Source of the DNA: an uncultured Ruminococcus sp.
GTDB taxonomy: Bacteria > Bacillota > Clostridia > Oscillospirales > CAG-272
Direction: 5' to 3'
Length of the DNA: 55,587 bases
Assembly (NCBI GenBank): GCA_902779285.1
Contig: CACZAZ010000002.1
Coordinates: 1 to 55,587 of the forward strand
Shown here piece by piece: positions 25,442-41,653 of this stretch. Both the position numbers and the translations under genes were made by a program. The notes beneath the pieces were generated by a model, which saw nothing but the letters and a program-made list of their open reading frames with translations, was not told the origin of the DNA and did no database searches. Each line of letters opens with the position of its first letter. Positions within the stretch are counted from its first letter, which is position 1.

Positions 25442-28400
25442 TTACGGTGCGACCGGAACGCTGTTGATCAGGTGATCGATGAACTGCTGGATCGTCCGCG
25501 TCTGCCAACTGGGATCAATGAGCGTCAGTTTCGCCTGCGTGGACGCAGAGAAGTTAATCAGCCCCTTGGTGACGTAGTCGCCCATCGTCGTGTTCTGGAA
25601 GATCGAGGACATCGAGTTCGGACCGCTGCCGCCCAGTTCGTCGAGCCGCGCGTTCCCGGGCAGAAGCGACAGGAACCCGCTCGCCCGCTCGGTGTCCGAG
25701 AACATATCGGCGACGGTCAGGTTGCTCATCCGCGTGCCGAGCTGATCGAGTTCGGTATCCGAGACGGTATTGATGATGGTCGAGGTCTTGGTCACGCCGT
25801 CGTACCACCAATGCTCGACCTCGTCGTAGGTATAGCCGAGGATCTTGCCGACCTTGGTATCGTTCAGGTCGGATTCGAGGTTGTCGATCGTGCTGTCCGC
25901 GACCGCCTGGATCACGCCGGTCGCCCGGACGTTGCCGGGATCCGCGGGTGCGATATAGGTGGAGTACCAGACCCCGCCGACCTTCTCGTAACCCATGATC
26001 TCCCCGACCGTCATGGTGTGGGTGATGTCGTTCAGTTCTCCGACCCGTTTGGGCGCGAGCGACTTCATAACGCCGGTGACCGGGGTCGCAAGGGTACTGT
26101 CGGTGTACCAGACGCCGCCGTCGTAGGCGTAGCCCATCGCGTAACCGATCACGACGTTGACCGATTTTGCCGAGACCTGCGTCTCGTCCGAGAGGTCGCG
26201 GATCTTCATATCGGCAAAACTGACCATCACGCCGACCGCCTCTTCGGTGTAGGCGCGGTCCTTGTACCACTTGCCGTTCTTGGGATCGAGCGGGTCGAGT
26301 TCGTTATCGTACTTGTAGAGCGACAGCACCTTGCCGAGTTCCATATCCTCGATATCGTTCGAGAGGGTGTCGACGTAGGAGTCGCAGATCGCGCCGATGA
26401 CGCCCGACGCCTCCGCGTTCCCGGGGTCGGCGGGACCGATATAGGTGGAGTACCAGACGCCGCCGACCTTCTGGTAGCCGAGCAGTTCGCCGACCGGAAC
26501 GGTGGTCGAAACGGTGTCCATCTCTCCGACGGTCTTGGGAGCCAGCGCCTTCATCATCCCGGAAACGGGGGTCGCGAGGGTGTCGTCGGTGTACCAGACG
26601 CCGCCGCTGTAAGTATAGCCCATCGCCTCGCCGATCAGGATGGTCTTGGTCTTGGCGGTCACTTTCGACGAGTCTTTCAGATCCTCGACCGTCAGTTCCG
26701 CGAATTTCGCCATAATGCCGTCGGCGGGAACCGTCCGCGCGTCGTCCTTATACCACGTTCCGTAGTTCGGATCGAGCGGATCGTCGGTTTCGTAGCGGTA
26801 GAGTTCGAGGATCGAGCCGATCCGGATGGTCTTGACGTTGTCGCCCAGCCCGTTGATGTGGAAGTCCGCGATCGACGCCATAATGCCCGACGCCTTGACG
26901 TTGCCGGGATCACCGACGTCAACGTAGGTCTCGTACCAGACGCCGCCGACCTTCGTATAGCCGAGGAGTTCACCGATCGCGGTATCGTCTCCGATGGTCT
27001 CCATATTGCCGACGGTCTTGGGAGCGAGCGCCTTCATCATACCGGAAACGGGGGTCGCGTGGGTGGAATCGGTGTACCAGACGCCGCCGTAGAAGGAGTA
27101 GCCCATCGCGTCTCCGATTTGGACCGCCTTGATCTTCTCGGTGACGAGATCGTTGTTGCTGAGGTCCCCGATCGAAAGATCGGCAAGCGACGGCAGAACG
27201 CCCGACGCCGCGGACAGACAGTAGCGGTCGTCGTCGACGCCGAAACTGCGGAACTCGGCTTTGTACCAATTCCCCTCGAACAGGGTCAGTCCGGTCACGC
27301 CGCCGACCTTGACGGCGTTCACCTGGGACGAGATGCCGTCGATCGTGCAGTACGCGAGCGCGGAAATGGTGTCGGACTGCCGGACGTTGTTCTTGTCGTA
27401 CCAGAGTTTGACCGTCGCCTGTTCCCCGACGTGGTCGCCCGTCGTGTAGAGCATCGGGTCGCCCGCGTTGTCGTAGAGCGGAACGTCGACGGCGTGGAGA
27501 TTCAGAAGTTCGTGGAGCGGCATTCCCTTGGTCAACTCGTCGGAGGTGATCTTCCCGTCGATCAGGTCGCCGAGGAAGTAATTGGAGAGTTTCTGTTCAA
27601 TGCCCGCCGTCGGGTTGGACAGGTCGCCCGAAACGGCGTCCTTCGTCTTGTACCATTGATAGCGGAGCGCCTCGTTCTCGTCGAGCGGATCGACCTTCGG
27701 GAGCGGGTCGTCGCCGTGGTGATAGCCCATCGCCTCGCCGAGATAGACCTCGTCGAAGGCGTCCGCCACCTTGTAGGTATCGTCGTCGATCAGCCGTTTG
27801 AGATCGATGTTCGCCGTCGCGCGGTCGAGACCCGTGACGGGTTTGTTATCTTTATCGAGCCAGCCGGTGACCTTCTCGGCATCCAGCGGATCGTCCTTGA
27901 CGGGGGTGTATTTCAGAAGGTCCCCGACGTACAGTCCGTCGAGCGCGTCCGCGACTTGGAAATCGCCTCCCGTCAGGTCGGTGATCTTCTTTTTCGCGAG
28001 CGATTCGGACACGCGGTCGAGGTCCTCGCCGTTCGAGTCCTTCCAGCCGACGATATTGTCCTCGCCGTCCTTGACGGGCGTGTATTTCATAAGGTCCCCG
28101 ACGTACAGTCCTTCGAGTGCGTCATCGACTTCAAAATCGCCGCTCGTCAGTTCCTCGACCGGCTGTTTGGCGAGCGCCGCGGTGACGCGGTCGAGATCCT
28201 CTCCGTTCGAGTCCTTCCAGTCGACGATATTGCCGGAGCCGTCCTCGACCGGCGTATAGTTCATCAGGTCGCCGACGTACAGCCCCGCGATCAGGTCGTC
28301 GGTCGAGAAGCCGTCGCCCAGCAGATTCGTCAGTTTCTTGCCCGCGAGCGTGCGGTTGACGCGATCGGGGGGATTGCCGTCCCCTTTCAGCCAGCCGGTG

Positions 28401-29494
28401 ATGGCGCCGGTCGCGTCGAAGACCGGATCGTATTCCTGGAAGAAGCCGATGTAGGCGTTTGAGAGCAGCGCGTCGGTGTCGAGTCCGTTTTCGCCTAACC
28501 CGTTGACCGTGCCGTCAGCCAGCGCGCGCATCACGCCCTTGACTCTCGCTCCCTCGCCGTCGAGCCAGTCGACGACGATCCCGGTCGATTGATCGCCGTT
28601 GTAATAAACGGGGGTATACCCCATCAGGTCGCCGAGTTTCCGTCCGTTGATCAGAACGCCGACGTCGAGCGAGAGAGCCCCCGTCGCCTCGTCCTCGACG
28701 ATCAGGTCGCCGATGGTCTTGCCCGCGACGATGCCGTTCAGCACGGCGCTGTCTCCGTTTGAAACGCTCTTGACCAGAAGGTCGATCATCACGTCGTTCA
28801 TCCCGTCGTTGATAACCGTCAGCATATCGCCGCCGTTGCCGACCACGTCGAGCGTCCTGCCGAGATCGAGCGAGCCGAGCAGTTCGAGCAGCGTAGGTTT
28901 GGCGGGATCCTTATAGACGGGGAAATAATGCCCGGAGGAATCCTTTTCGTACTGCACGCCGGCGAGGTATCCGAGTTTGATCCCGGTGAGCAGGTCGGTC
29001 ATCTTCAGTTCGACGACCTCTTTCAGCGTTTTTCCGGTCAGCGCCTCGCGAGCCGGCTCCGCCAGAACGTCGCTCGGCAGGAACTGGAACAGATAGGAGA
29101 CGTCGGTATGTTCGAGAATCGCGGAAATGCCGCTCTTCGAGAAGATCTCTTTCACCGAAAGCGACCGCACGCCGGAGGGGATCTTCTCCATGACCTCGTC
29201 CGGGATCTTCAGACCCCATCTTTCGATCAGAAGGTCGATCGACACGGTCTTGTCGAGGTCCTGCAGTTCCTTGATCTCGGCGACGAACGCCTTGATAGTC
29301 ATAGCGGTCAGATCGACCTCGGCGTCCTCGTCGACGTACTGATCCTCGTTCACCGAGACGACACCCCATTTTTCAAGTTGATCGAGCGAGACCTTGGCGT
29401 AGGCATAGTAACCCACCCCGAAGATCGCCCCGATACAGGAGAGAAAGCCGAGGAAGAAAGCCAGGACCAAAGCGAGAAAACGCGAAACCGTCAT
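25442..29494 (-). CDS. 1350-aa N-terminally anchored acidic repeat protein of unknown function
   Basis: N-terminal TM; about 17-18 copies of a [VIL]G-x-x-[ML]-x-Y ... W motif; 174-bp DNA period (27926, 28100, 28274) and about 483-486-bp higher-order period; promoter TTGCAT-17-TATAAT (29575-29603). Confidence 0.85.
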   Translation of the reverse strand: MTVSRFLALVLAFFLGFLSCIGAIFGVGYYAYAKVSLDQLEKWGVVSVNEDQYVDEDAEVDLTAMTIKAFVAEIKELQDLDKTVSIDLLIERWGLKIPDEVMEKIPSGVRSLSVKEIFSKSGISAILEHTDVSYLFQFLPSDVLAEPAREALTGKTLKEVVELKMTDLLTGIKLGYLAGVQYEKDSSGHYFPVYKDPAKPTLLELLGSLDLGRTLDVVGNGGDMLTVINDGMNDVMIDLLVKSVSNGDSAVLNGIVAGKTIGDLIVEDEATGALSLDVGVLINGRKLGDLMGYTPVYYNGDQSTGIVVDWLDGEGARVKGVMRALADGTVNGLGENGLDTDALLSNAYIGFFQEYDPVFDATGAITGWLKGDGNPPDRVNRTLAGKKLTNLLGDGFSTDDLIAGLYVGDLMNYTPVEDGSGNIVDWKDSNGEDLDRVTAALAKQPVEELTSGDFEVDDALEGLYVGDLMKYTPVKDGEDNIVGWKDSNGEDLDRVSESLAKKKITDLTGGDFQVADALDGLYVGDLLKYTPVKDDPLDAEKVTGWLDKDNKPVTGLDRATANIDLKRLIDDDTYKVADAFDEVYLGEAMGYHHGDDPLPKVDPLDENEALRYQWYKTKDAVSGDLSNPTAGIEQKLSNYFLGDLIDGKITSDELTKGMPLHELLNLHAVDVPLYDNAGDPMLYTTGDHVGEQATVKLWYDKNNVRQSDTISALAYCTIDGISSQVNAVKVGGVTGLTLFEGNWYKAEFRSFGVDDDRYCLSAASGVLPSLADLSIGDLSNNDLVTEKIKAVQIGDAMGYSFYGGVWYTDSTHATPVSGMMKALAPKTVGNMETIGDDTAIGELLGYTKVGGVWYETYVDVGDPGNVKASGIMASIADFHINGLGDNVKTIRIGSILELYRYETDDPLDPNYGTWYKDDARTVPADGIMAKFAELTVEDLKDSSKVTAKTKTILIGEAMGYTYSGGVWYTDDTLATPVSGMMKALAPKTVGEMDTVSTTVPVGELLGYQKVGGVWYSTYIGPADPGNAEASGVIGAICDSYVDTLSNDIEDMELGKVLSLYKYDNELDPLDPKNGKWYKDRAYTEEAVGVMVSFADMKIRDLSDETQVSAKSVNVVIGYAMGYAYDGGVWYTDSTLATPVTGVMKSLAPKRVGELNDITHTMTVGEIMGYEKVGGVWYSTYIAPADPGNVRATGVIQAVADSTIDNLESDLNDTKVGKILGYTYDEVEHWWYDGVTKTSTIINTVSDTELDQLGTRMSNLTVADMFSDTERASGFLSLLPGNARLDELGGSGPNSMSSIFQNTTMGDYVTKGLINFSASTQAKLTLIDPSWQTRTIQQFIDHLINSVPVAP

Positions 29495-29633: not shown

Positions 29634-29775
29634 TCATTAGCGAGCGCAGCGAGCTACATCATTAACGAGCAGAGCGAGTTACATCATCAGCCCGCTTGCG
29701 GGCGACATCATTAGCGAAGCGCAGCGAGCTACATCATTGACCTCGTGCGACGCGGAGCAAAGCAAGAGGTCACAT
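29634..29775. repeat. Array of five hairpins separated by CATCAT linkers
   Basis: TAGC..GCTA, TAAC..GTTA, GCCCGC-TT-GCGGGC, TAGC..GCTA, TGACCTC..GAGGTCA. Confidence 0.7.
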
Positions 29776-29958: not shown

Positions 29959-30047
29959 TGGTGCCGATGACCGGGTTCGAACCGGTACGGGAGTTAAGTC
30001 CCATCGGATTTTAAGTCCGAGGCGTCTGCCAGTTTCGCCACATCGGC
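29959..30047 (-). tRNA. tRNA-Leu (anticodon TAA)
   Basis: GCCGATG/CATCGGC acceptor stem, CT-TAA-AA anticodon loop, long variable arm, GGTTCGAACC T loop, encoded CCA; promoter TTGACT-17-TATACT (30064-30092). Confidence 0.97.
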
Positions 30048-31119: not shown

Positions 31120-32709
31120 ATGAATTACGAAAACGAAATACGGCGGCGGCGCACTTTTGCGATCATTTCGCACCCCGACGCCGGTAAAACCACGCTGACC
31201 GAAAAGTTCCTGCTCTACGGCGGCGCGATCCAGTCCGCGGGCTCGGTCAAGGGCAAACAGGGCGACCGCCACGCGACGTCGGACTGGATGGAGATCGAAA
31301 AGAAGCGCGGGATCTCGGTCACGTCGTCGGTCCTCCAGTTCGAGTACGACGGCTACTGCGTCAACATCCTCGACACCCCGGGACACCAGGATTTCTCCGA
31401 GGACACCTATCGTACGCTGATGGCGGCGGACAGCGCCGTCATGGTGATCGACGCGGCGAAGGGCATCGAGCCCCAGACCCGCAAACTGTTCCGCGTCTGC
31501 GCTCTGCGCGGCATCCCGATCTTCACCTTCATCAACAAACTCGACCGCGAGGCGCGCGATCCCTTCGACCTGCTCGACGAACTGGAAAAGGAGTTCGGCA
31601 TCGGGACCTATCCCGTCAACTGGCCGATCGGGTGCGGGCGCGATTTCCGCGGGGTCTTCGACCGGCAGAAACGCTGCGTCGAGGTCTTCGACGAATTCCA
31701 CCGGGGACGCGAACGGCTGCAGGCGATCGAATGCGACCTGACCGACGTCGCCAAGATGGACGAACTGATCGGTCCGTTCGCCCGCGAAAAACTCACCGAG
31801 CAGATCGAATTGCTCGACGTGGCGAGTTACGAATTCGACCTCGACCGCGTCCGGTGCGGCAAACTGTCGCCCGTCTTCTTCGGCTCGGCGCTGAACAATT
31901 TCGGGGTCGAGACCTTCCTGCAGAACTTCCTCAAAATGTCCCCTCCCCCTCTCCCGCATCTCTCGGAGGGCGTCGAGATCGACCCGGTTTCGGAGGGGTT
32001 TTCGGCGTTCGTGTTCAAGATCCAGGCGAATATGAACAAAGCGCACCGCGACCGCATCGCCTTCTTCCGCATCTGCTCGGGCAAGTTCGAGCGCGGAAAA
32101 GAGTATCGGCACGTGCGCACCGGCAAGAACGTGAAACTCTCGCAGCCCCAGCAGATGATGGCGCAGGAGCGCGAGGTGATCGACGAGGCGTACGCCGGGG
32201 ACATCATCGGCGTCTTCGATCCCGGCATCTACTCGATCGGGGACACGGTATGCGAGATCGGTAAAGAGATCCGCTACGCGGGCATCCCGACCTTCGCGCC
32301 CGAGCATTTTGCCGTGGTCGAGCAGATCGACTCGATGAAGCGCAAGCAGTTCGCCAAGGGGATGGAGCAGATCGCGGAAGAAGGCGCGATCCGCATCTTC
32401 CTCGAGCCCGGAATGGGGATGGAACGCGTCACGGTCGGCGTGGTCGGCGTGCTGCAGTTCGACGTGCTCGAATTCCGGATGGAGAGCGAGTACGGCGTCA
32501 AGTACCGCCGCTCGGATCTGCCGCACACGCTGATCCGCTATCTCCCCGAAGGGGTGGATCCCGCCGCGCTCAAACTGATGCAGTCGACGCGCCGCGTGAC
32601 CGACCTGAAGGGACGGAACCTGCTGATCTTTACCGCGGATTACGAGATCCGCTGGGCGGAGGAAAAGAACCCCGGTCTTTCTTTGATCGAATTCGATCAG
32701 GTCGTCTGA
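31120..32709 (+). CDS. prfC: Peptide chain release factor 3
   Basis: RRRTFAIISHPDAGKTT, SDWMEIEKKRGISVTSS, DTPGHQDFSEDTYRTL, INKLDR, GVVGVLQFDV. Confidence 0.97.
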   Translation: MNYENEIRRRRTFAIISHPDAGKTTLTEKFLLYGGAIQSAGSVKGKQGDRHATSDWMEIEKKRGISVTSSVLQFEYDGYCVNILDTPGHQDFSEDTYRTLMAADSAVMVIDAAKGIEPQTRKLFRVCALRGIPIFTFINKLDREARDPFDLLDELEKEFGIGTYPVNWPIGCGRDFRGVFDRQKRCVEVFDEFHRGRERLQAIECDLTDVAKMDELIGPFAREKLTEQIELLDVASYEFDLDRVRCGKLSPVFFGSALNNFGVETFLQNFLKMSPPPLPHLSEGVEIDPVSEGFSAFVFKIQANMNKAHRDRIAFFRICSGKFERGKEYRHVRTGKNVKLSQPQQMMAQEREVIDEAYAGDIIGVFDPGIYSIGDTVCEIGKEIRYAGIPTFAPEHFAVVEQIDSMKRKQFAKGMEQIAEEGAIRIFLEPGMGMERVTVGVVGVLQFDVLEFRMESEYGVKYRRSDLPHTLIRYLPEGVDPAALKLMQSTRRVTDLKGRNLLIFTADYEIRWAEEKNPGLSLIEFDQVV

Positions 32710-35579: not shown

Positions 35580-35936
35580 ATGAAAACGATCGGCAACGTC
35601 ATCTGGCTCATTCTGACCGGACTTGAAATGGCTCTCGCGTGGTTCTTCCTCGGCATTATCTGGTGCGTCACCATTATCGGCATCCCCTTCGGCAAGCAAT
35701 GCTTCAAGCTGGCGCGGGTCGCGATCTGGCCCATGGGCACGAAGGTCTCGACCGATTTCGGCAAGCACCCGATCGCCAACGTGATCTGGCTGATCTTCGG
35801 CGGGATCGGGCTCGGCTTCGGCTTTATCTTCGCGGGGATCCTCTGGTGCATCACCATTATCGGCATCCCGTTCGGCAAGCAGTGCTTCAAGCTCGCCAAG
35901 CTCGGATTCATCCCGTTCGGCGCGACCGTCGAATGA
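35580..35936 (+). CDS. YccF-family (DUF307) membrane protein with internal duplication
   Basis: Two copies of NVIW...IIGIPFGKQCFKLA; GAAAGGA RBS; promoter TTGACC-18-TATAAT. Confidence 0.9.
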   Translation: MKTIGNVIWLILTGLEMALAWFFLGIIWCVTIIGIPFGKQCFKLARVAIWPMGTKVSTDFGKHPIANVIWLIFGGIGLGFGFIFAGILWCITIIGIPFGKQCFKLAKLGFIPFGATVE

Positions 35937-36123
35937 CCCGTTTGCGCCCCGCCGCGTTTTGCGGCGGGGCGTATTACGTTCTCTGCAGGCGCAGAACGTG
36001 TCGTATACGTCGCTTACGGCGGATATATCGCTTTGCCAAGGGCGAAGAATCGCGCGGGGGTCGCCCCGCTTCTTTTCTTTTTGCCACCGTTGCGCGTTTT
36101 TCGCGGCGCAACGCGCATCCCTC

Positions 36124-36152
36124 TTGCATTTTTCTTTTTCTTGTGCTATAAT
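36124..36152 (+). promoter_or_regulatory. sigma-A promoter upstream of the riboswitch
   Basis: TTGCAT-17-TATAAT with TG extended -10. Confidence 0.75.
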
Positions 36153-36184
36153 GGTCGGGCAACCGGGAAACGCGGCTGCAAATC

Positions 36185-36234
36185 AGCGGAGTTCGGGCTC
36201 TAAATCCTTCGCTTTAAAAAACAAAACCAAGGAG
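36185..36234 (+). ncRNA. preQ1 class I riboswitch candidate
   Basis: P1 AGCGGAG/CTTCGCT, loop TTCGGGCTCTAAATC (cf. B. subtilis GUUCUAGCUACACCC), A-rich tail TTAAAAAACAAAACC abutting SD AAGGAG (cf. T. tengcongensis UUAACAAAACAAG); directly upstream of a VUT transporter. Confidence 0.75.
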
Positions 36235-36239
36235 AAACA

Positions 36240-36995
36240 ATGAAAAACAGAATCAAAGCAGACTGGGCGGATACGCGGCTTCTGTTCCGCTGTATCCCCG
36301 CGACCGTCGCCACGCTCTTCGCCGTGTCGGTCGTGATGATGAATCTTTTGGCGAACAAGACGATCTACCAGTCGGCATACCTTGCGCTCGACGGCGGGAT
36401 CCTTGTGTCCTGGCTGTCGTTTTTGTGTATGGACGTCGTGACGAAGGCGTTCGGGCCGAAGGCGGCGACCAAACTCTCGGTGTTCGCGATCGGCGTCAAC
36501 CTGATCGTCTGCTTCTTCTTTTATATCGTCAGCGTCATCCCGACGAAGGACGATTTCTCCGCGTTCAATCAGACCGTCGGCGGCACCTGGTTCATCCTGC
36601 TTTCCAGCACGGTCGCGTTTCTCTTTTCCGCTTTCATCAACAACTTTATGAACTGGGGGATCGGGCGGGCGTTCAAGCGGAATCCCGACGGCAAACTCGC
36701 CTTCTTTACCCGGTGCTACGCCTCGACCTTTCTCGGGCAGTTCTTCGACAATTTCATCTTTGCGATCCTGACCTTCACGGTCTTCGCCCCGATCTTCTGG
36801 GACGGCTTCTCCTGGACGATCCTGCAATGCTTCACCTGTTCGCTGCTCGGGGCGGGAGCGGAACTCTTCTGCGAGGTGATCTTCTCCCCGCTCGGCTATA
36901 AGATCGTGCGCCGCTGGGAGCGCGAGGGGATCGCGGATCCGTACCTCAAACGAACGTCCGCCGAAAACAGCGAAAGCGAGGGGGTTTTGGTATGA
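36240..36995 (+). CDS. VUT/YhhQ family queuosine-precursor transporter
   Basis: MNLLANK, FLCMDVVTKAFGPKAA, LSSTVAFL, TFLGQFFDNFIF; multi-TM. Confidence 0.85.
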   Translation: MKNRIKADWADTRLLFRCIPATVATLFAVSVVMMNLLANKTIYQSAYLALDGGILVSWLSFLCMDVVTKAFGPKAATKLSVFAIGVNLIVCFFFYIVSVIPTKDDFSAFNQTVGGTWFILLSSTVAFLFSAFINNFMNWGIGRAFKRNPDGKLAFFTRCYASTFLGQFFDNFIFAILTFTVFAPIFWDGFSWTILQCFTCSLLGAGAELFCEVIFSPLGYKIVRRWEREGIADPYLKRTSAENSESEGVLV

Positions 36996-37651
36996 ATATC
37001 GTCATAACGGGTTCGTCCCGCGGGATCGGGAAGGCGGTCGCGGAGCGGTTCCTCTCACTCGGGCATACGGTATTCGGGATCGATCTATTGCCCGCTTCGA
37101 TCCGGAACGAACGCTATTTACACACCGTCGCAGACGTGCGCGACGCCGCCTCGCTGCCCGATATTCCCTCCGTCGATATCCTCTTTCTCAACGCGGGGAC
37201 GCAGAACGGGGAGAACGATATCGAAACCAATCTTATCGGCGCGATGAACGCAGCCGAAAAATTCTGTGCGTCGCCCGCCCTGCGCTCGGTGCTTTTCAAC
37301 GCCTCGGCGTCCGCCGTCACCGGGCAGGAGTTCCCCGCCTACGCCGCGTCGAAAGCGGGGCTCGTCGGGTATATGAAGAACCTCGCGATCAAACTCGCCC
37401 CGCGCGGCGTGACGGTCAACGCGATCTCCCCCGGCGGGGTCTTGACCGAGTCAAACGACCCCGTGACGAGCGATCCCGCCCTCTGGAAAAAGATCATGGA
37501 CGTCACGCCCCTCGGAAAATGGGCAACGGTCGACGAGATCGCGGACTGGGTGATCTTCCTGACGCTCACCAACCGCTCCATGTCGGGGCAGAATCTGCTG
37601 ATCGACAACGGGGAGAAGGATCTCTATCCCACCTTCGTTTGGAAAGACTGA
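36992..37651 (+). CDS. Classical short-chain dehydrogenase/reductase
   Basis: VITGSSRGIG, NAG, ASAS, YAASK, VNAISPG; ATGA overlap with the VUT gene. Confidence 0.9.
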   Translation: MNIVITGSSRGIGKAVAERFLSLGHTVFGIDLLPASIRNERYLHTVADVRDAASLPDIPSVDILFLNAGTQNGENDIETNLIGAMNAAEKFCASPALRSVLFNASASAVTGQEFPAYAASKAGLVGYMKNLAIKLAPRGVTVNAISPGGVLTESNDPVTSDPALWKKIMDVTPLGKWATVDEIADWVIFLTLTNRSMSGQNLLIDNGEKDLYPTFVWKD

Positions 37652-37692
37652 AACAAAAACGCGGCGCGCCGAACGGCGCGCCGCAAGTTTTC

Positions 37693-37789
37693 AGGGTCGA
37701 TTACGGGGCGTTATTAAGGGTCGATCGCGGGGGCGTTTTCAGGGTCGATCACGGGGCGTTTTTAAGGGTCGATCACGGGGTGGCGTTTC
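37693..37789. repeat. Four tandem 24-bp repeats
   Basis: AGGGTCGAT at 37693, 37717, 37741, 37765; consensus AGGGTCGATCACGGGGCGTTTTTA. Confidence 0.9.
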
Positions 37790-38111
37790 ATTCTGCCCTC
37801 GTGTATTTTTTGCAAACCTTGTGATACGCGAACACGGTCAGGGGGATCCCGATAAGGCAGCCCGCGAGGATGATCGCCGCCGCCGCGAGGCGATGGACGG
37901 TCCCGACGCCGGCAGCCGCGAAGAACGGGAGCGAGAAGCACGCCCAGATCGCGGCGTTCGCCCGGTTGAAACCGCGGACGTCCGACACCTCGGGTCCCGG
38001 GACGCCCGAAAAAAACCACATCGGGGTCTTGCGAAACCACGCGAAAAGAGCGAGCCCGAACAGGATCAGGGGGAGCGGCAGGGTCGCAGCCAGCCAGATG
38101 AAGGTCTCCAC
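37788..38111 (-). CDS. Small hypothetical membrane protein (3 TM)
   Basis: AAGGAG RBS with GTG start; hydrophobic segments. Confidence 0.7.
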   Translation of the reverse strand: METFIWLAATLPLPLILFGLALFAWFRKTPMWFFSGVPGPEVSDVRGFNRANAAIWACFSLPFFAAAGVGTVHRLAAAAIILAGCLIGIPLTVFAYHKVCKKYTRAE

Positions 38112-39118: not shown

Positions 39119-39964
39119 ATGCAAAGAAGAGAAGACGAAGATATTTACGACCGCGCGCTCCGGGTCCTCCGGGGGAGCTTGATCCTGCAACTGACGATCT
39201 TTTTGATCATGGCCGCGCTCGGGTCGTTCATGATCTATCAGTCCCGCAAGTACGCGCCGATCGAACGGGAGGGCGCCGAAAGTTACGTCGGCTCGTTTGA
39301 GGAATACCGGAGCGAAGACCGCGTCCTCGCGTTTTCGGACGGCGCCGAATACCGGCTCTTCTCGGTCACCGCTACGGACGAACTCGAAACCGCCCTGAAC
39401 GGTTTGGAAAAAGGGACGGAACTGCGGCTTCTCGTCAATCCGAAGATCGACGACGTGATCGAGATACGGACCGCAACCGAGTATCTGTTGGACTTCGACG
39501 GATCCCAAGCCGCGATCTACGCCGACAGAAAGGATCTCTTCTGGATCGGCGTGATGTTTATCGGGCTGCCGCTGATCCTCCTGCTCCTACTTCAAATCGA
39601 ACGGATCGGCAAGAAAAAGGAGAAAAAGCGTCAACGCGTTCGCGACGGCAGGGCGAAAAAACAGAAGTTCCGGGGCAAAGGCACGCCGCCGCTGCGCGAC
39701 GCGGATATGACCAAACGCGGTCGGATCCTGCTCGAAGCGACCAAGGACAAATACGAGATCGTCTACCGCCGCCTGAAAAAGGTGAACGAGCTGATCGTCA
39801 ACGGGCGGGTCTACGACGAGATGAAGGCGGTGCTGGAGGTCGAACACACCCTCTCCGCCGAGATCGACGGTCACAAGATCGAGGCGGGATTACAGGAGAT
39901 CGGCACGATCAGTTTCATCCGCTTCGACGGGGAGACGCTGGCGGAGAAACGGCGCGTCATCTGA
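39119..39964 (+). CDS. Hypothetical membrane protein (2 TM plus soluble domains)
   Basis: Long ORF with GAGG RBS and TTGCGT-17-TATAAT promoter; no recognised family. Confidence 0.7.
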   Translation: MQRREDEDIYDRALRVLRGSLILQLTIFLIMAALGSFMIYQSRKYAPIEREGAESYVGSFEEYRSEDRVLAFSDGAEYRLFSVTATDELETALNGLEKGTELRLLVNPKIDDVIEIRTATEYLLDFDGSQAAIYADRKDLFWIGVMFIGLPLILLLLLQIERIGKKKEKKRQRVRDGRAKKQKFRGKGTPPLRDADMTKRGRILLEATKDKYEIVYRRLKKVNELIVNGRVYDEMKAVLEVEHTLSAEIDGHKIEAGLQEIGTISFIRFDGETLAEKRRVI

Positions 39965-40011: not shown

Positions 40012-40209
40012 CGCGGTTTTTTTCTGCGGTTTTTCGCGGTTTTTGCGGTTTTTGCGGTTTTTCTGCGGTTTTTGCGGTTTTTCGCGGTTTCTTCTACGGT
40101 TTTTTCTGCGGTTTTTCGCGGTTTTTTCTGCGGTTTTTCTGCTGTTTTTCTGCGGTTTTTTCTGCGGTTTTTCGCGGTTTTCGCGGTTTTCGCGGTTTTC
40201 GCGGTTTTT
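40012..40209. repeat. 19-unit GCGG-T(4-7) array, mean period 10.4 bp
   Basis: T-tract starts at 40017, 30, 40, 49, 58, 69, 78, 88, 100, 112, 122, 134, 145, 156, 168, 178, 187, 196, 205; follows terminator-like hairpin GTCCGCACG/CGTGCGGAC. Confidence 0.9.
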
Positions 40210-41653
40210 ATTCGGTCGCCAAGCCCGCCGCAAGGCGGACGCAGCGGTAGCCGCCGTCGTAGTATCCCTGCCCCTTCAGTTCGGTGATCCGATCGCAGAA
40301 GTGCGGCAGGATCTCGCGGTCGGTGAGCAGGCGGTCGAGCGCCCGACGGAGATCGGGAAGTTCGGCGTACTCTCCCGTGGCGTCCCCGAACTCTCTGCCG
40401 TGGATCGCGCCGTAGACCTCGTGTCCCCCGATATGCTTCATAAAGAGTTTGGGAATCGGGTAGTAGGCGAGTTCGCTCGGCTTGGTGACCAAAAGATCGG
40501 ACACCGGCATCAGCAGATTGGTCGCGTAGACCGCCGAGAAAATATCGTCGTCGCAGATCAGCGTGACGCCCCGCGCCTCTCCTTCCCGGATCTCGGACGC
40601 GTAGCGCTTCAGCCCCTCGAAGTCGTTTCGGAAACAGCGCAGCCCGCCGAGCGCCCCGATCCGGGCTTTCAAGCGTTCGTACACCCCGGCGTGGTCGCCC
40701 GCGTTGAGGAACAGCGCCGCCTCGCCCCGTTCGACGTAGGGCGTCAGGTGTTCGATCATCCCGAGGAACAGGTCTCCCCCGGCGCCGGCACCCCCGACGT
40801 TGAGCAGGATCCGTATGGGTCCGCCCGACGCGATCCGCTCTTTGCGGAGGCGGTTATCCTCCTCGAGATCGCGGAGCAGTTCGTGGTCGACGTAGCAGCC
40901 GACCGCGTAAAGGTCGCTCTCCGGGATCCCTTTCAGGGGGGGTTTGGCGAATCCCTCGAGCGTTTTGTACCCGAGATAAGCGAACGGGGTCTGCACGGTA
41001 TGGATCGCGCCCTCGGACAGATGGAGTCCCATCGGCCAGTTGTCGGGGATCGCGTTGACGACGTGCGTCATACCGGCGTGGACCGCCGCCTGGCTCGGCC
41101 AAACGTGGGTGGCGATATAGGGCGTATCCTTGTCGATATGCGAAAAGAGCGGGACCAGCAGTTCGCTGTTTTTCTGATCCTTCGCGTTGTAGGTGATCTT
41201 CTTGAACCCCTCGGAGTTGAGCGGCTCCCAGATCAGCCGGTTGAACAGCCGCGATCTCTGCGAGATGCGGGAGGCGAGCGAGTACAGATCGTTCTGCTCG
41301 CGGATCATCTTCGACCCGGTCGCGTCGAACGAAGCGAGGTCGAGCCAATACGGGGTAAAGCCGAGCGCTCTCGCGCAGGACGCCATCGCGATCGAGATGC
41401 GGTAATGCCCGAAGCCCATCCGGATATTCCCGACGATCAGGGGCTTGCCGTCCATCGTCTCCGTCCCGTCTCCCGAGACGATATTCCGCGCCCCGATGTG
41501 CGAAAGCTGCCCGATCGGGGGGAACGCGAAGCGGTAGTCGGTCTTACTGTCGTCGCCGTATTTTTTCAGATATTTCGCCTTGGACTTTTCGGCTTTCTTC
41601 ACGGTTTTCCGGTCGATCGGATTGCCGAAAACGGTTTTCGTCCTGTCGGTCAT
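40208..41653 (-). CDS. GT-B-fold glycosyltransferase-like protein (MGDG-synthase/UgtP-like remote homolog)
   Basis: MGFGHYRI (cf. GxGH), IATHVW, LLNVGGAG, DLLVTKPSE, GGHE; ATGA overlap with GH36. Confidence 0.6.
   Translation of the reverse strand: MTDRTKTVFGNPIDRKTVKKAEKSKAKYLKKYGDDSKTDYRFAFPPIGQLSHIGARNIVSGDGTETMDGKPLIVGNIRMGFGHYRISIAMASCARALGFTPYWLDLASFDATGSKMIREQNDLYSLASRISQRSRLFNRLIWEPLNSEGFKKITYNAKDQKNSELLVPLFSHIDKDTPYIATHVWPSQAAVHAGMTHVVNAIPDNWPMGLHLSEGAIHTVQTPFAYLGYKTLEGFAKPPLKGIPESDLYAVGCYVDHELLRDLEEDNRLRKERIASGGPIRILLNVGGAGAGGDLFLGMIEHLTPYVERGEAALFLNAGDHAGVYERLKARIGALGGLRCFRNDFEGLKRYASEIREGEARGVTLICDDDIFSAVYATNLLMPVSDLLVTKPSELAYYPIPKLFMKHIGGHEVYGAIHGREFGDATGEYAELPDLRRALDRLLTDREILPHFCDRITELKGQGYYDGGYRCVRLAAGLATE

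Follow-up and report, generated by a model that had tools for sequence, protein, structure and literature searches.

The source of 7-aminomethyl-7-deazaguanine (preQ1) in gut and rumen bacteria that use Tgt and QueA but do not synthesize this queuosine precursor is an acknowledged gap (PMC11130926). What could fill it is a question raised by a short locus in the stretch of DNA analysed here, referred to as the window: 55,587 nucleotides of an uncultured Ruminococcus sp. (GenBank assembly GCA_902779285.1, contig CACZAZ010000002.1, positions 1 to 55,587). In this locus, a leader resembling the preQ1-I riboswitch precedes a gene for a YhhQ-like membrane transporter of the VUT/QPTR family (referred to as VUT), followed by a gene for a classical short-chain dehydrogenase/reductase (SDR). 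The initial annotation, made from the letters alone, had listed a promoter, a leader abutting the Shine-Dalgarno sequence, the transporter gene, an SDR gene overlapping it as ATGA, and a hairpin; direct reading of 35800-37900 together with the list of open reading frames (ORFs) found each of them where it had been placed and confirmed the two-gene operon anatomy (Table 1). Which task, then, would an SDR perform beside a transporter for queuosine precursors?

The reading to which we would give about an even chance is that of a two-gene salvage operon for queuosine precursors, controlled by a divergent translational riboswitch of preQ1-I type, in which the SDR turns the imported compound into preQ1. 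Briefly, when preQ1 is plentiful the aptamer would fold, the adjacent Shine-Dalgarno sequence would be blocked, and both proteins would be switched off. When preQ1 is scarce, VUT would import a base related to queuosine that is not a direct substrate of Tgt, and the cytoplasmic, NAD+-dependent SDR would convert this base to preQ1. The likeliest substrate would be queuine, the allylic 4′-hydroxyl of which would be oxidised to an enone; this would put the preQ1 nitrogen in the position beta to the carbonyl, and preQ1 would leave by elimination. In this way, the SDR would stand in for the radical S-adenosylmethionine (radical-SAM) queuine lyase QueL with another kind of chemistry.

The transporter and dehydrogenase genes are inseparable

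The transporter matches PF02592 (Vut_1; E 8.2e-24; 85.1 bits, cut-off 27.2), and the family assigned to it initially is thereby upheld. Against the TIGR00697 model, named 'queuosine precursor transporter', it scores 37.9 bits, under the cut-off of 50.95, and it represents a divergent clade. QueT and YhhQ are the classical targets of preQ1 riboswitches (PMC11625349, PMC5372724); within the YhhQ/QPTR family (COG1738, PF02592), the E. coli member imports 7-cyano-7-deazaguanine (preQ0) and preQ1, and the Chlamydia trachomatis homologue is specific for queuine (PMC5372724, PMC11130926). By analogy with these proteins, the VUT of the window would be a transporter of a queuosine precursor.

The linkage of the two genes extends far beyond the window, as had been anticipated. 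Among the matches listed, an SDR orthologue follows VUT directly in 74 loci in addition to the window, and the VUT protein tree splits cleanly into two sister clades, one linked to the SDR (75/75 of the members whose partner is known) and one to an amidase (28/28, support 1.0). Adjacency is invariant in the SDR-linked clade, which covers more than 70 species of Clostridia and Bacilli as well as phages, where the pair sits in 7-deazaguanine clusters. The same VUT-SDR pair, with unrelated flanks, is also present in three loci fetched through SDR homologues that are only ~70% identical. In the window, the ATG of the SDR gene overlaps the TGA of the VUT gene as ATGA, an arrangement of translational coupling, and in one locus (L056) the two are merged into a 546-aa fusion protein; at least four distinct clusters of VUT-SDR fusions, down to 47% identity, occur in a collection of 5.8 billion proteins. 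Adjacent clade-wide, translationally coupled and sometimes fused, the VUT and SDR genes are inseparable.

Gut metatranscriptome contigs cover both operon genes, and one contig of 260 nt bridges the VUT/SDR junction (36826-37085), which is weak evidence that the two genes are co-transcribed. A conserved third operon gene was looked for across the loci, and none was found. In two unrelated metagenome contigs, a gene of the Flavin_Reduct family (PF01613) adjoins the VUT-SDR pair (L001, 2598-3098; L003, 4676-5236), lying upstream of the pair in one contig and directly downstream in the other; it is not conserved in the wider set. Full-text literature searches found no YhhQ/QPTR protein paired with a dehydrogenase or an amidase.

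The SDR itself carries the domains PF13561 (E 3.9e-26) and PF00106 (E 3.5e-21), with the TGxxxGxG and NAG motifs and the Asn-Ser-Tyr-Lys tetrad of an ordinary classical enzyme of the alcohol/carbonyl type. Alignment of 24 diverse orthologues revealed the invariant residues G7, G11, G13, N67-A68-G69, N80, S105/S107, Y117, and K121 (numbering of the alignment tool); Asp31 at the end of β2 is invariant as well, and a C-terminal FVW is conserved. In the standard classification of classical SDRs, an Asp at the end of β2 is the signature of NAD(H), and such enzymes typically oxidise. The invariance of Asp31 therefore favours an NAD-type enzyme with an oxidative role.

An AlphaFold2 model of the SDR, with a Rossmann fold, has a predicted local distance difference test score (pLDDT) of 93.1, and the nearest folds in the PDB (sequence search and Foldseek) are generic SDRs of at most 30% identity that give no substrate clue. 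None of the 211 NCBIfam models matched reaches its cut-off on the SDR, the best being a FabG subfamily model with 94 bits against 222. The QueF domain (PF14489) is absent from the protein, and no Cys is among the orthologue invariants. Its domains are those of an SDR in place of the radical-SAM fold with a CxxxCxxC cluster that characterises QueL, and any function in common with QueL would be analogous, not homologous. In line with the initial annotation, no such SDR was found in the described queuosine pathways, and the protein is a strong candidate for a queuosine-salvage enzyme not described before.

The preQ1-I-like leader

The leader is read as a P1 stem of 7 bp (AGCGGAG/CUUCGCU, with its 5′ strand at 36185-36191 and its 3′ strand at 36207-36213) that encloses a 15-nt loop, UUCGGGCUCUAAAUC, at 36192-36206, in which the presumed specificity C is 36206. 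The stem is followed by an A-rich tail (36214-36226), a CC (36227-36228), and the Shine-Dalgarno sequence AAGGAG (36229-36234). The hallmarks of type-I preQ1-I aptamers have been reviewed together with the Carnobacterium antarcticum aptamer (Wedekind review, PMC11625349), and the leader shares with this type (RF00522) the small H-type layout, P1, the UU and UC dinucleotides, the A-rich tail with its C, the 3′ Shine-Dalgarno sequence, and the position before queT/yhhQ-type transporters. It differs in that P1 has 7 bp instead of 5, the loop 15 nt instead of ~12, and the tail ~7 additional nt. As P1, loop and tail are all longer, the Rfam model misses it.

The match of the preQ1-I-like leader to Rfam is weak and below threshold, a shortfall that the initial annotation had not noticed. 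A gathering-level Rfam scan of the window gave no preQ1 riboswitch match. A permissive scan of 361 nt gave a match to RF00522 (PreQ1) at 36182-36236 with 16.9 bits and an E value of 0.53, which is not significant alone; the gathering score is 39 bits. The variant aptamers as a group score 16.9-21.6 bits, and in none of 40 carrier genomes is the gathering score reached. No match to preQ1-III (RF02680) was obtained in 40 genomes, an absence that says little since the control genomes are equally silent. Single-sequence folding of the leader is no better than that of shuffled sequences (z 0.6), and the structure is supported by comparative data alone.

These comparative data begin with three loci found by way of the SDR protein, not of the RNA, in which an almost identical 52-nt element lies directly 5′ of the VUT start. 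A pattern with 25 specified bases, searched in a 596-Gb genome collection where ~0.02 matches would be expected by chance (own arithmetic), was matched in at least 120 loci, each from a different species record. Among the matches listed, the hosts belong to the Clostridia and Bacilli and nearly all were sampled from ruminants or from other gut sources, with Fusicatenibacter faecihominis and Clostridiales bacterium NK3B98 as cultured carriers; the gene 3′ of the motif encodes VUT in ~110 of the 120 and a QueT-type energy-coupling factor (ECF) S-component in two (L117, L118), and VUT is the first gene in essentially all listed loci that are not cut by a contig end. Gut metatranscriptome contigs from several organisms cover the aptamer region (36185-36237).

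P1 is paired at 96.8% in 62 distinct sequences, against 46-59% in a control with the partner strand slid, and compensatory double changes are found in three of its seven pairs (AU/CG/UA; CG to AU in 10 sequences). The type-I signature, namely UU after the 5′ strand of P1, UC before its 3′ strand, the A-rich tail and the conserved C, is invariant in the 62 aligned sequences. A candidate P2 pseudoknot would pair the GG of the loop with the CC of the tail, next to the Shine-Dalgarno sequence; both dinucleotides are invariant in the alignment and hence give no covariation signal, and the divergent copies in L130 and L149 do not decide for or against the pairing. With a covariance model of our own (R1), built from these sequences, the window reaches 80.6 bits, and almost every one of the 51 genomes described below has a single copy. 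Loop variants also exist, such as UUCGGGCUCAAAAUC in L129 and UUCGGGUCCGAUAUC in L130, as well as viral leaders with larger loops. Taken together, the comparative evidence places the leader in the preQ1 class, and on its sequence features it reads as a real but divergent preQ1-I subtype; full-text searches found no published enlarged preQ1-I subtype, and Rfam 15 contains no model for it.

F. faecihominis carries two aptamer subtypes, a near-canonical preQ1-I before QueT and the enlarged variant before VUT-SDR. The former (L136; genome G026, contig C10, ~31950-31997, minus strand) has the P1 CAUGUG/CACAUG and the loop UUCGUGACCUUC, and lies directly before QueT; at 25.1 bits against the RF00522 gathering score of 39, this aptamer is missed by standard annotation too. 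The leaders of viral VUT-SDR pairs (L142, L145, L148, L155, L157-L159, L161-L163) lie just upstream of the VUT start and consist of P1, a ~21-nt loop (UUUUGUAA...CCUUGACAyC), an A-rich tail, and AAGGAG. They score 13-28 bits with our own covariance model and may be a further preQ1-I-like subtype, in which the CCUU of the loop could pair with the AAGG of the Shine-Dalgarno sequence.

Carrier genomes, related modules and the reaction of the SDR

The need for an external precursor was assessed by a gene census of 51 genomes with the motif, among them that of the window, which is 95% complete. The outcome agrees with the co-occurrence with tgt and the absence of queF that the initial annotation had named as checks: tgt is present in 50 genomes, queA in all 51, and queH in 39, and most of the genomes that lack it have a QueG-like gene, whereas neither queC above cut-off nor a genuine queF occurs in any. 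In the window's own genome, the QueG-like match scores 111.7 bits, under the model cut-off. Weak 'QueF' matches were rejected as FolE-like T-fold proteins, being ORFs of 183-207 aa that match only the first 58 model positions with 22-35 bits. As tgt and queA are kept but queC and queF are missing, the carriers need external preQ1, and as QueT is found in only nine of the 51 genomes (not in the window's own), the VUT module is usually the sole recognisable precursor transporter.

A hydrolase of the inosine-uridine (IU) nucleoside hydrolase family, to which QueK belongs, is found in 21 of the 51 genomes with no pattern by module type, and not in the window's own. In four small Bacilli genomes (G006 contig C10, G045 C10, G046 C21, and G047 C1), such a gene, with ~315 bits to PF01156, lies on the same contig as a tgt-queA-queH cluster, 6-9 kb away, and could be a QueK-like queuosine hydrolase. 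Qng1 (PF10343) had no match in any genome, controls included, and is hence uninformative.

A second module, not noticed in the initial annotation, lies behind the same riboswitch motif and combines a separate VUT clade with an amidase. The second gene encodes an amidase-signature protein of ~490 aa in 27 loci among the matches listed (including L013, L020, L032, L048, L052, L062, L079, L080, L098, L109, L123, and L126), the closest solved relative of which is an aryl acylamidase (PDB 4yj6, E 3e-139), and VUT-amidase fusions of ~710 aa are found in L057, L084, and L125. In one genome (G039), an amidase module and an SDR-type VUT occur together, each behind its own copy of the motif, so the two modules are not simply interchangeable. 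N-formyl-preQ1 is known in phage DNA (PMC10516641). It is a guess by analogy that the amidase might release preQ1 from an N-acyl form.

The VUT-SDR pair was also detected on 24 IMG/VR viral contigs. In ~160-kb contigs attributed to jumbo phages, the gene order is VUT-SDR-QueF-(HNH)-QueC-QueD-QueE-FolE, and the QueF beside the SDR is genuine (PF14489, 113 bits). No relative of the SDR was found in INPHARED at E 1e-20, and the pair is not mentioned in the published descriptions of phage 7-deazaguanine clusters that were searched (Hutinet et al. 2019, PMC6884629; Cui et al. 2023, PMC10516641). In contrast to these DNA-modification clusters, the window is chromosomal and would serve tRNA modification.

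Two features of this distribution bear on the reaction. Since preQ1 as a cargo would need no enzyme, yet the enzyme partner is obligatory, the cargo is probably one that has to be converted; and since the SDR and amidase modules use one riboswitch subtype, the riboswitch ligand would be the common product of both enzymes and not one of their differing substrates. Among conceivable substrates of the SDR, queuine, oxidised at its cyclopentenediol as in the second option of the initial annotation, appears to fit the evidence best on chemical grounds. A more specific version, in which the SDR would be the founder of an NAD+-dependent queuine dehydrogenase/lyase family, the amidase would uncage N-acyl-preQ1, and the leader would constitute a fourth, enlarged preQ1-I subtype, can be put forward only tentatively.

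The initial annotation had offered, as its first option, a QueF-independent route to preQ1, in which preQ0 taken up by VUT would have its nitrile reduced by the SDR at the expense of NAD(P)H. All 51 carriers lack QueF yet need preQ1, and YhhQ-type transporters do import preQ0 (PMC5372724). The SDR would also resemble QueF in yielding preQ1 with a nicotinamide cofactor, but QueF is an NADPH-dependent T-fold enzyme, whereas the SDR has a Rossmann fold with an invariant Asp31 that points to NAD, an ordinary alcohol/carbonyl tetrad, and no invariant Cys such as QueF needs for its thioimide intermediate. Moreover, such a reaction would be redundant in the ~160-kb viral contigs, where the two stand side by side within a full preQ0 pathway, and the amidase-linked sister genomes are without QueF as well. 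To our knowledge, four-electron reduction of a nitrile by an SDR has no precedent, which also counts against this option, and we hold it to be very improbable. We are equally doubtful that the module has nothing to do with queuosine, the VUT clade importing some other vitamin-like compound for reduction or oxidation by the SDR and the leader merely resembling preQ1-I. Transporter and RNA do score under the TIGR00697 and Rfam cut-offs, and the window contains no other queuosine gene; however, the same RNA motif precedes QueT, the phage copies lie inside FolE-QueD-QueE-QueC-QueF clusters, and all carriers are preQ1 auxotrophs that have tgt and queA, so that this explanation is highly unlikely.

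Salvage of 7-deazapurine (deoxy)nucleosides, for example queuosine or the preQ1 deoxynucleoside (dPreQ1) of phage DNA, is a different possibility, in which the SDR would oxidise the 3′-OH of the sugar, the base would be eliminated, and nucleosides that phosphorylases handle poorly would be served. It suits an NAD-type, oxidative SDR, the 30 of 51 carriers (and the window's genome) without an IU-nucleoside hydrolase, and the embedding of the pair in phage 7-deazaguanine clusters. Elimination from a keto-sugar is, in addition, established chemistry elsewhere and speaks for it. Nevertheless, a steady supply of free preQ1 nucleosides is doubtful, queuine freed from queuosine would still be unusable for an organism with preQ1-dependent Tgt and QueA, and the characterised VUT/QPTR members carry bases, not nucleosides (PMC5372724, PMC11130926); we judge nucleoside salvage to be unlikely. 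The same low probability is assigned to an aptamer that senses another ligand, queuine or an imported precursor, as a substrate-induced ON switch, formation of P1 freeing the Shine-Dalgarno sequence from an anti-Shine-Dalgarno UCCU where loop and P1 meet. The longer loop and tail, the Rfam score far under the cut-off, and the two aptamer subtypes of F. faecihominis, which hint at different roles, would agree with such a switch. A common end product is nonetheless the better fit for an identical variant before two VUT clades with different enzymes and before QueT; of the type-I hallmarks (PMC11625349), the C that specifies the ligand, the UU and the C of the tail are all kept, and the alternative hairpin is not conserved where P1 varies.

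Several observations nevertheless weigh against the favoured reading of a preQ1-regulated operon in which the SDR makes preQ1 from imported queuine. Sequence and structure searches put the SDR among generic SDRs, with no specific pointer to queuine. The aptamer is below the Rfam gathering score, its ligand and polarity are assigned by analogy, and the invariance of its loop is partly by construction because the RNA loci were gathered by an exact pattern. Pairing of an anti-Shine-Dalgarno UCCUU, which overlaps the 3′ strand of P1, with the AAGGA of the Shine-Dalgarno sequence is within ~1 kcal/mol of the P1 fold, and this near-isoenergetic alternative would suit an ON switch. Most carriers are metagenome-assembled genomes (MAGs), so that a gene scored as absent may lie outside an incomplete assembly, although all 51 show a consistent pattern. 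Finally, the uncaging idea is weakened as the amidase has no obvious abundant natural substrate.

Locus surroundings and relation to known salvage systems

Table 1. Features of the two-gene locus, in window coordinates
Feature	Position	Strand	Remarks
Putative sigma-70-type promoter	36124..36152	+	-35 TTGCAT at 36124-36129, 17-nt spacer, extended -10 TGcTATAAT at 36144-36152; read from sequence
preQ1-I-like aptamer, enlarged type-I-like variant	36185..36234	+	Leader; comparative data
VUT/QPTR-family (YhhQ-like) membrane transporter, 251 aa	36240..36995	+	PF02592; SDR-linked clade
Classical SDR, 219 aa	36992..37651	+	PF13561/PF00106; predicted NAD-type
GC-rich 11-bp hairpin GCGGCGCGCCGaacgGCGCGCCGC(A)	37660..37685		Between convergent genes

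The elements that flank the operon are in keeping with a compact transcription unit. A consensus promoter scanner made no call on the putative promoter, as its -35 box agrees with the consensus at just three of six positions; a TGnTAnAAT box is likewise found 5′ of the motif in two other loci (L001 and L005). A terminator scan called the hairpin behind the SDR gene for the minus strand, where its 10 GC pairs precede a T-rich tail, and on the plus-strand side the stem is followed by just AAGTTTTC. It is likely, from these sequence features, to be a bidirectional terminator that closes the two-gene operon. No queuosine gene other than those of the operon was found among the genes of the window, and the flanks encode YccF, a glucuronate isomerase, a xylose-isomerase-like TIM barrel protein, and others.

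Tandem repeats were noted at several places in the window. Right behind the terminator hairpin, the intergenic segment 37687-37780 repeats a 24-nt unit (GTTTTAAGGGTCGATCACGGGGC) four times in tandem. At 40019-40209, a 9-11-nt unit (TTTTTCTGCGG) repeated ~18 times in tandem sits between the ORF at 39119-39964 and the 3′ end of a DUF6937/DUF6938 gene (40208-41653, minus strand), and gives rise to spurious low-complexity ORFs on both strands. A 25-nt unit occurs four times in tandem at 29634-29738; ~220 nt away lies an 86-nt tRNA (29962-30047, minus strand, 56 bits), the variable arm of which is long. Finally, an ORF of 1350 aa without a Pfam match (25442-29494, minus strand) contains 174-nt tandem repeats at 27892-28367.

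Among known systems, the locus is most readily compared with the queK-qrtT-queL operon of C. difficile, in which, as Yuan et al. 2019 is reported in PMC11477304 and PMC11130926, a preQ1-I riboswitch controls a transporter and enzymes for the conversion of queuosine and queuine to preQ1. Both combine a preQ1-class riboswitch with a precursor transporter and an enzyme that makes, or in the window would make, preQ1 from an unusable queuosine derivative, in a Firmicute with tgt and queA but without the de novo pathway. They differ in the transporter, VUT/QPTR here and the ECF S-component QrtT there, as well as in the enzyme, an NAD-type SDR as opposed to a radical-SAM lyase with a nucleoside hydrolase; the riboswitch of the window is in addition enlarged and under the Rfam cut-off, and the substrate and reaction of the SDR are only deduced. 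With the YhhQ/QPTR proteins, VUT shares the Pfam family, the association with preQ1 riboswitches and a proposed role in precursor salvage, for which the queuine-carrying member is a precedent. Its clade is nevertheless distinct, under the TIGR00697 cut-off, and always coupled and sometimes fused to the SDR, just as the sister clade is coupled to an amidase.

Riboswitch-controlled operons for precursor salvage are thus already known, and what is new here is an undescribed enzyme component together with an unannotated aptamer subtype. So far, QueK/QueL is the one known route from queuine to preQ1, and the VUT-SDR module, with two genes, a soluble enzyme and a defined set of candidate substrates, is a candidate for a second. 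If this is true, the SDR would be a non-homologous replacement of QueL that is widespread in rumen and gut Firmicutes and has been borrowed by phages that put preQ1 into their DNA. As annotation based on Rfam misses the aptamer subtype altogether, the queuosine regulons of rumen and gut MAGs are at present under-annotated. Bacteria that use up queuine by such a route would compete for this micronutrient with the host animal, which relies on microbes for it.

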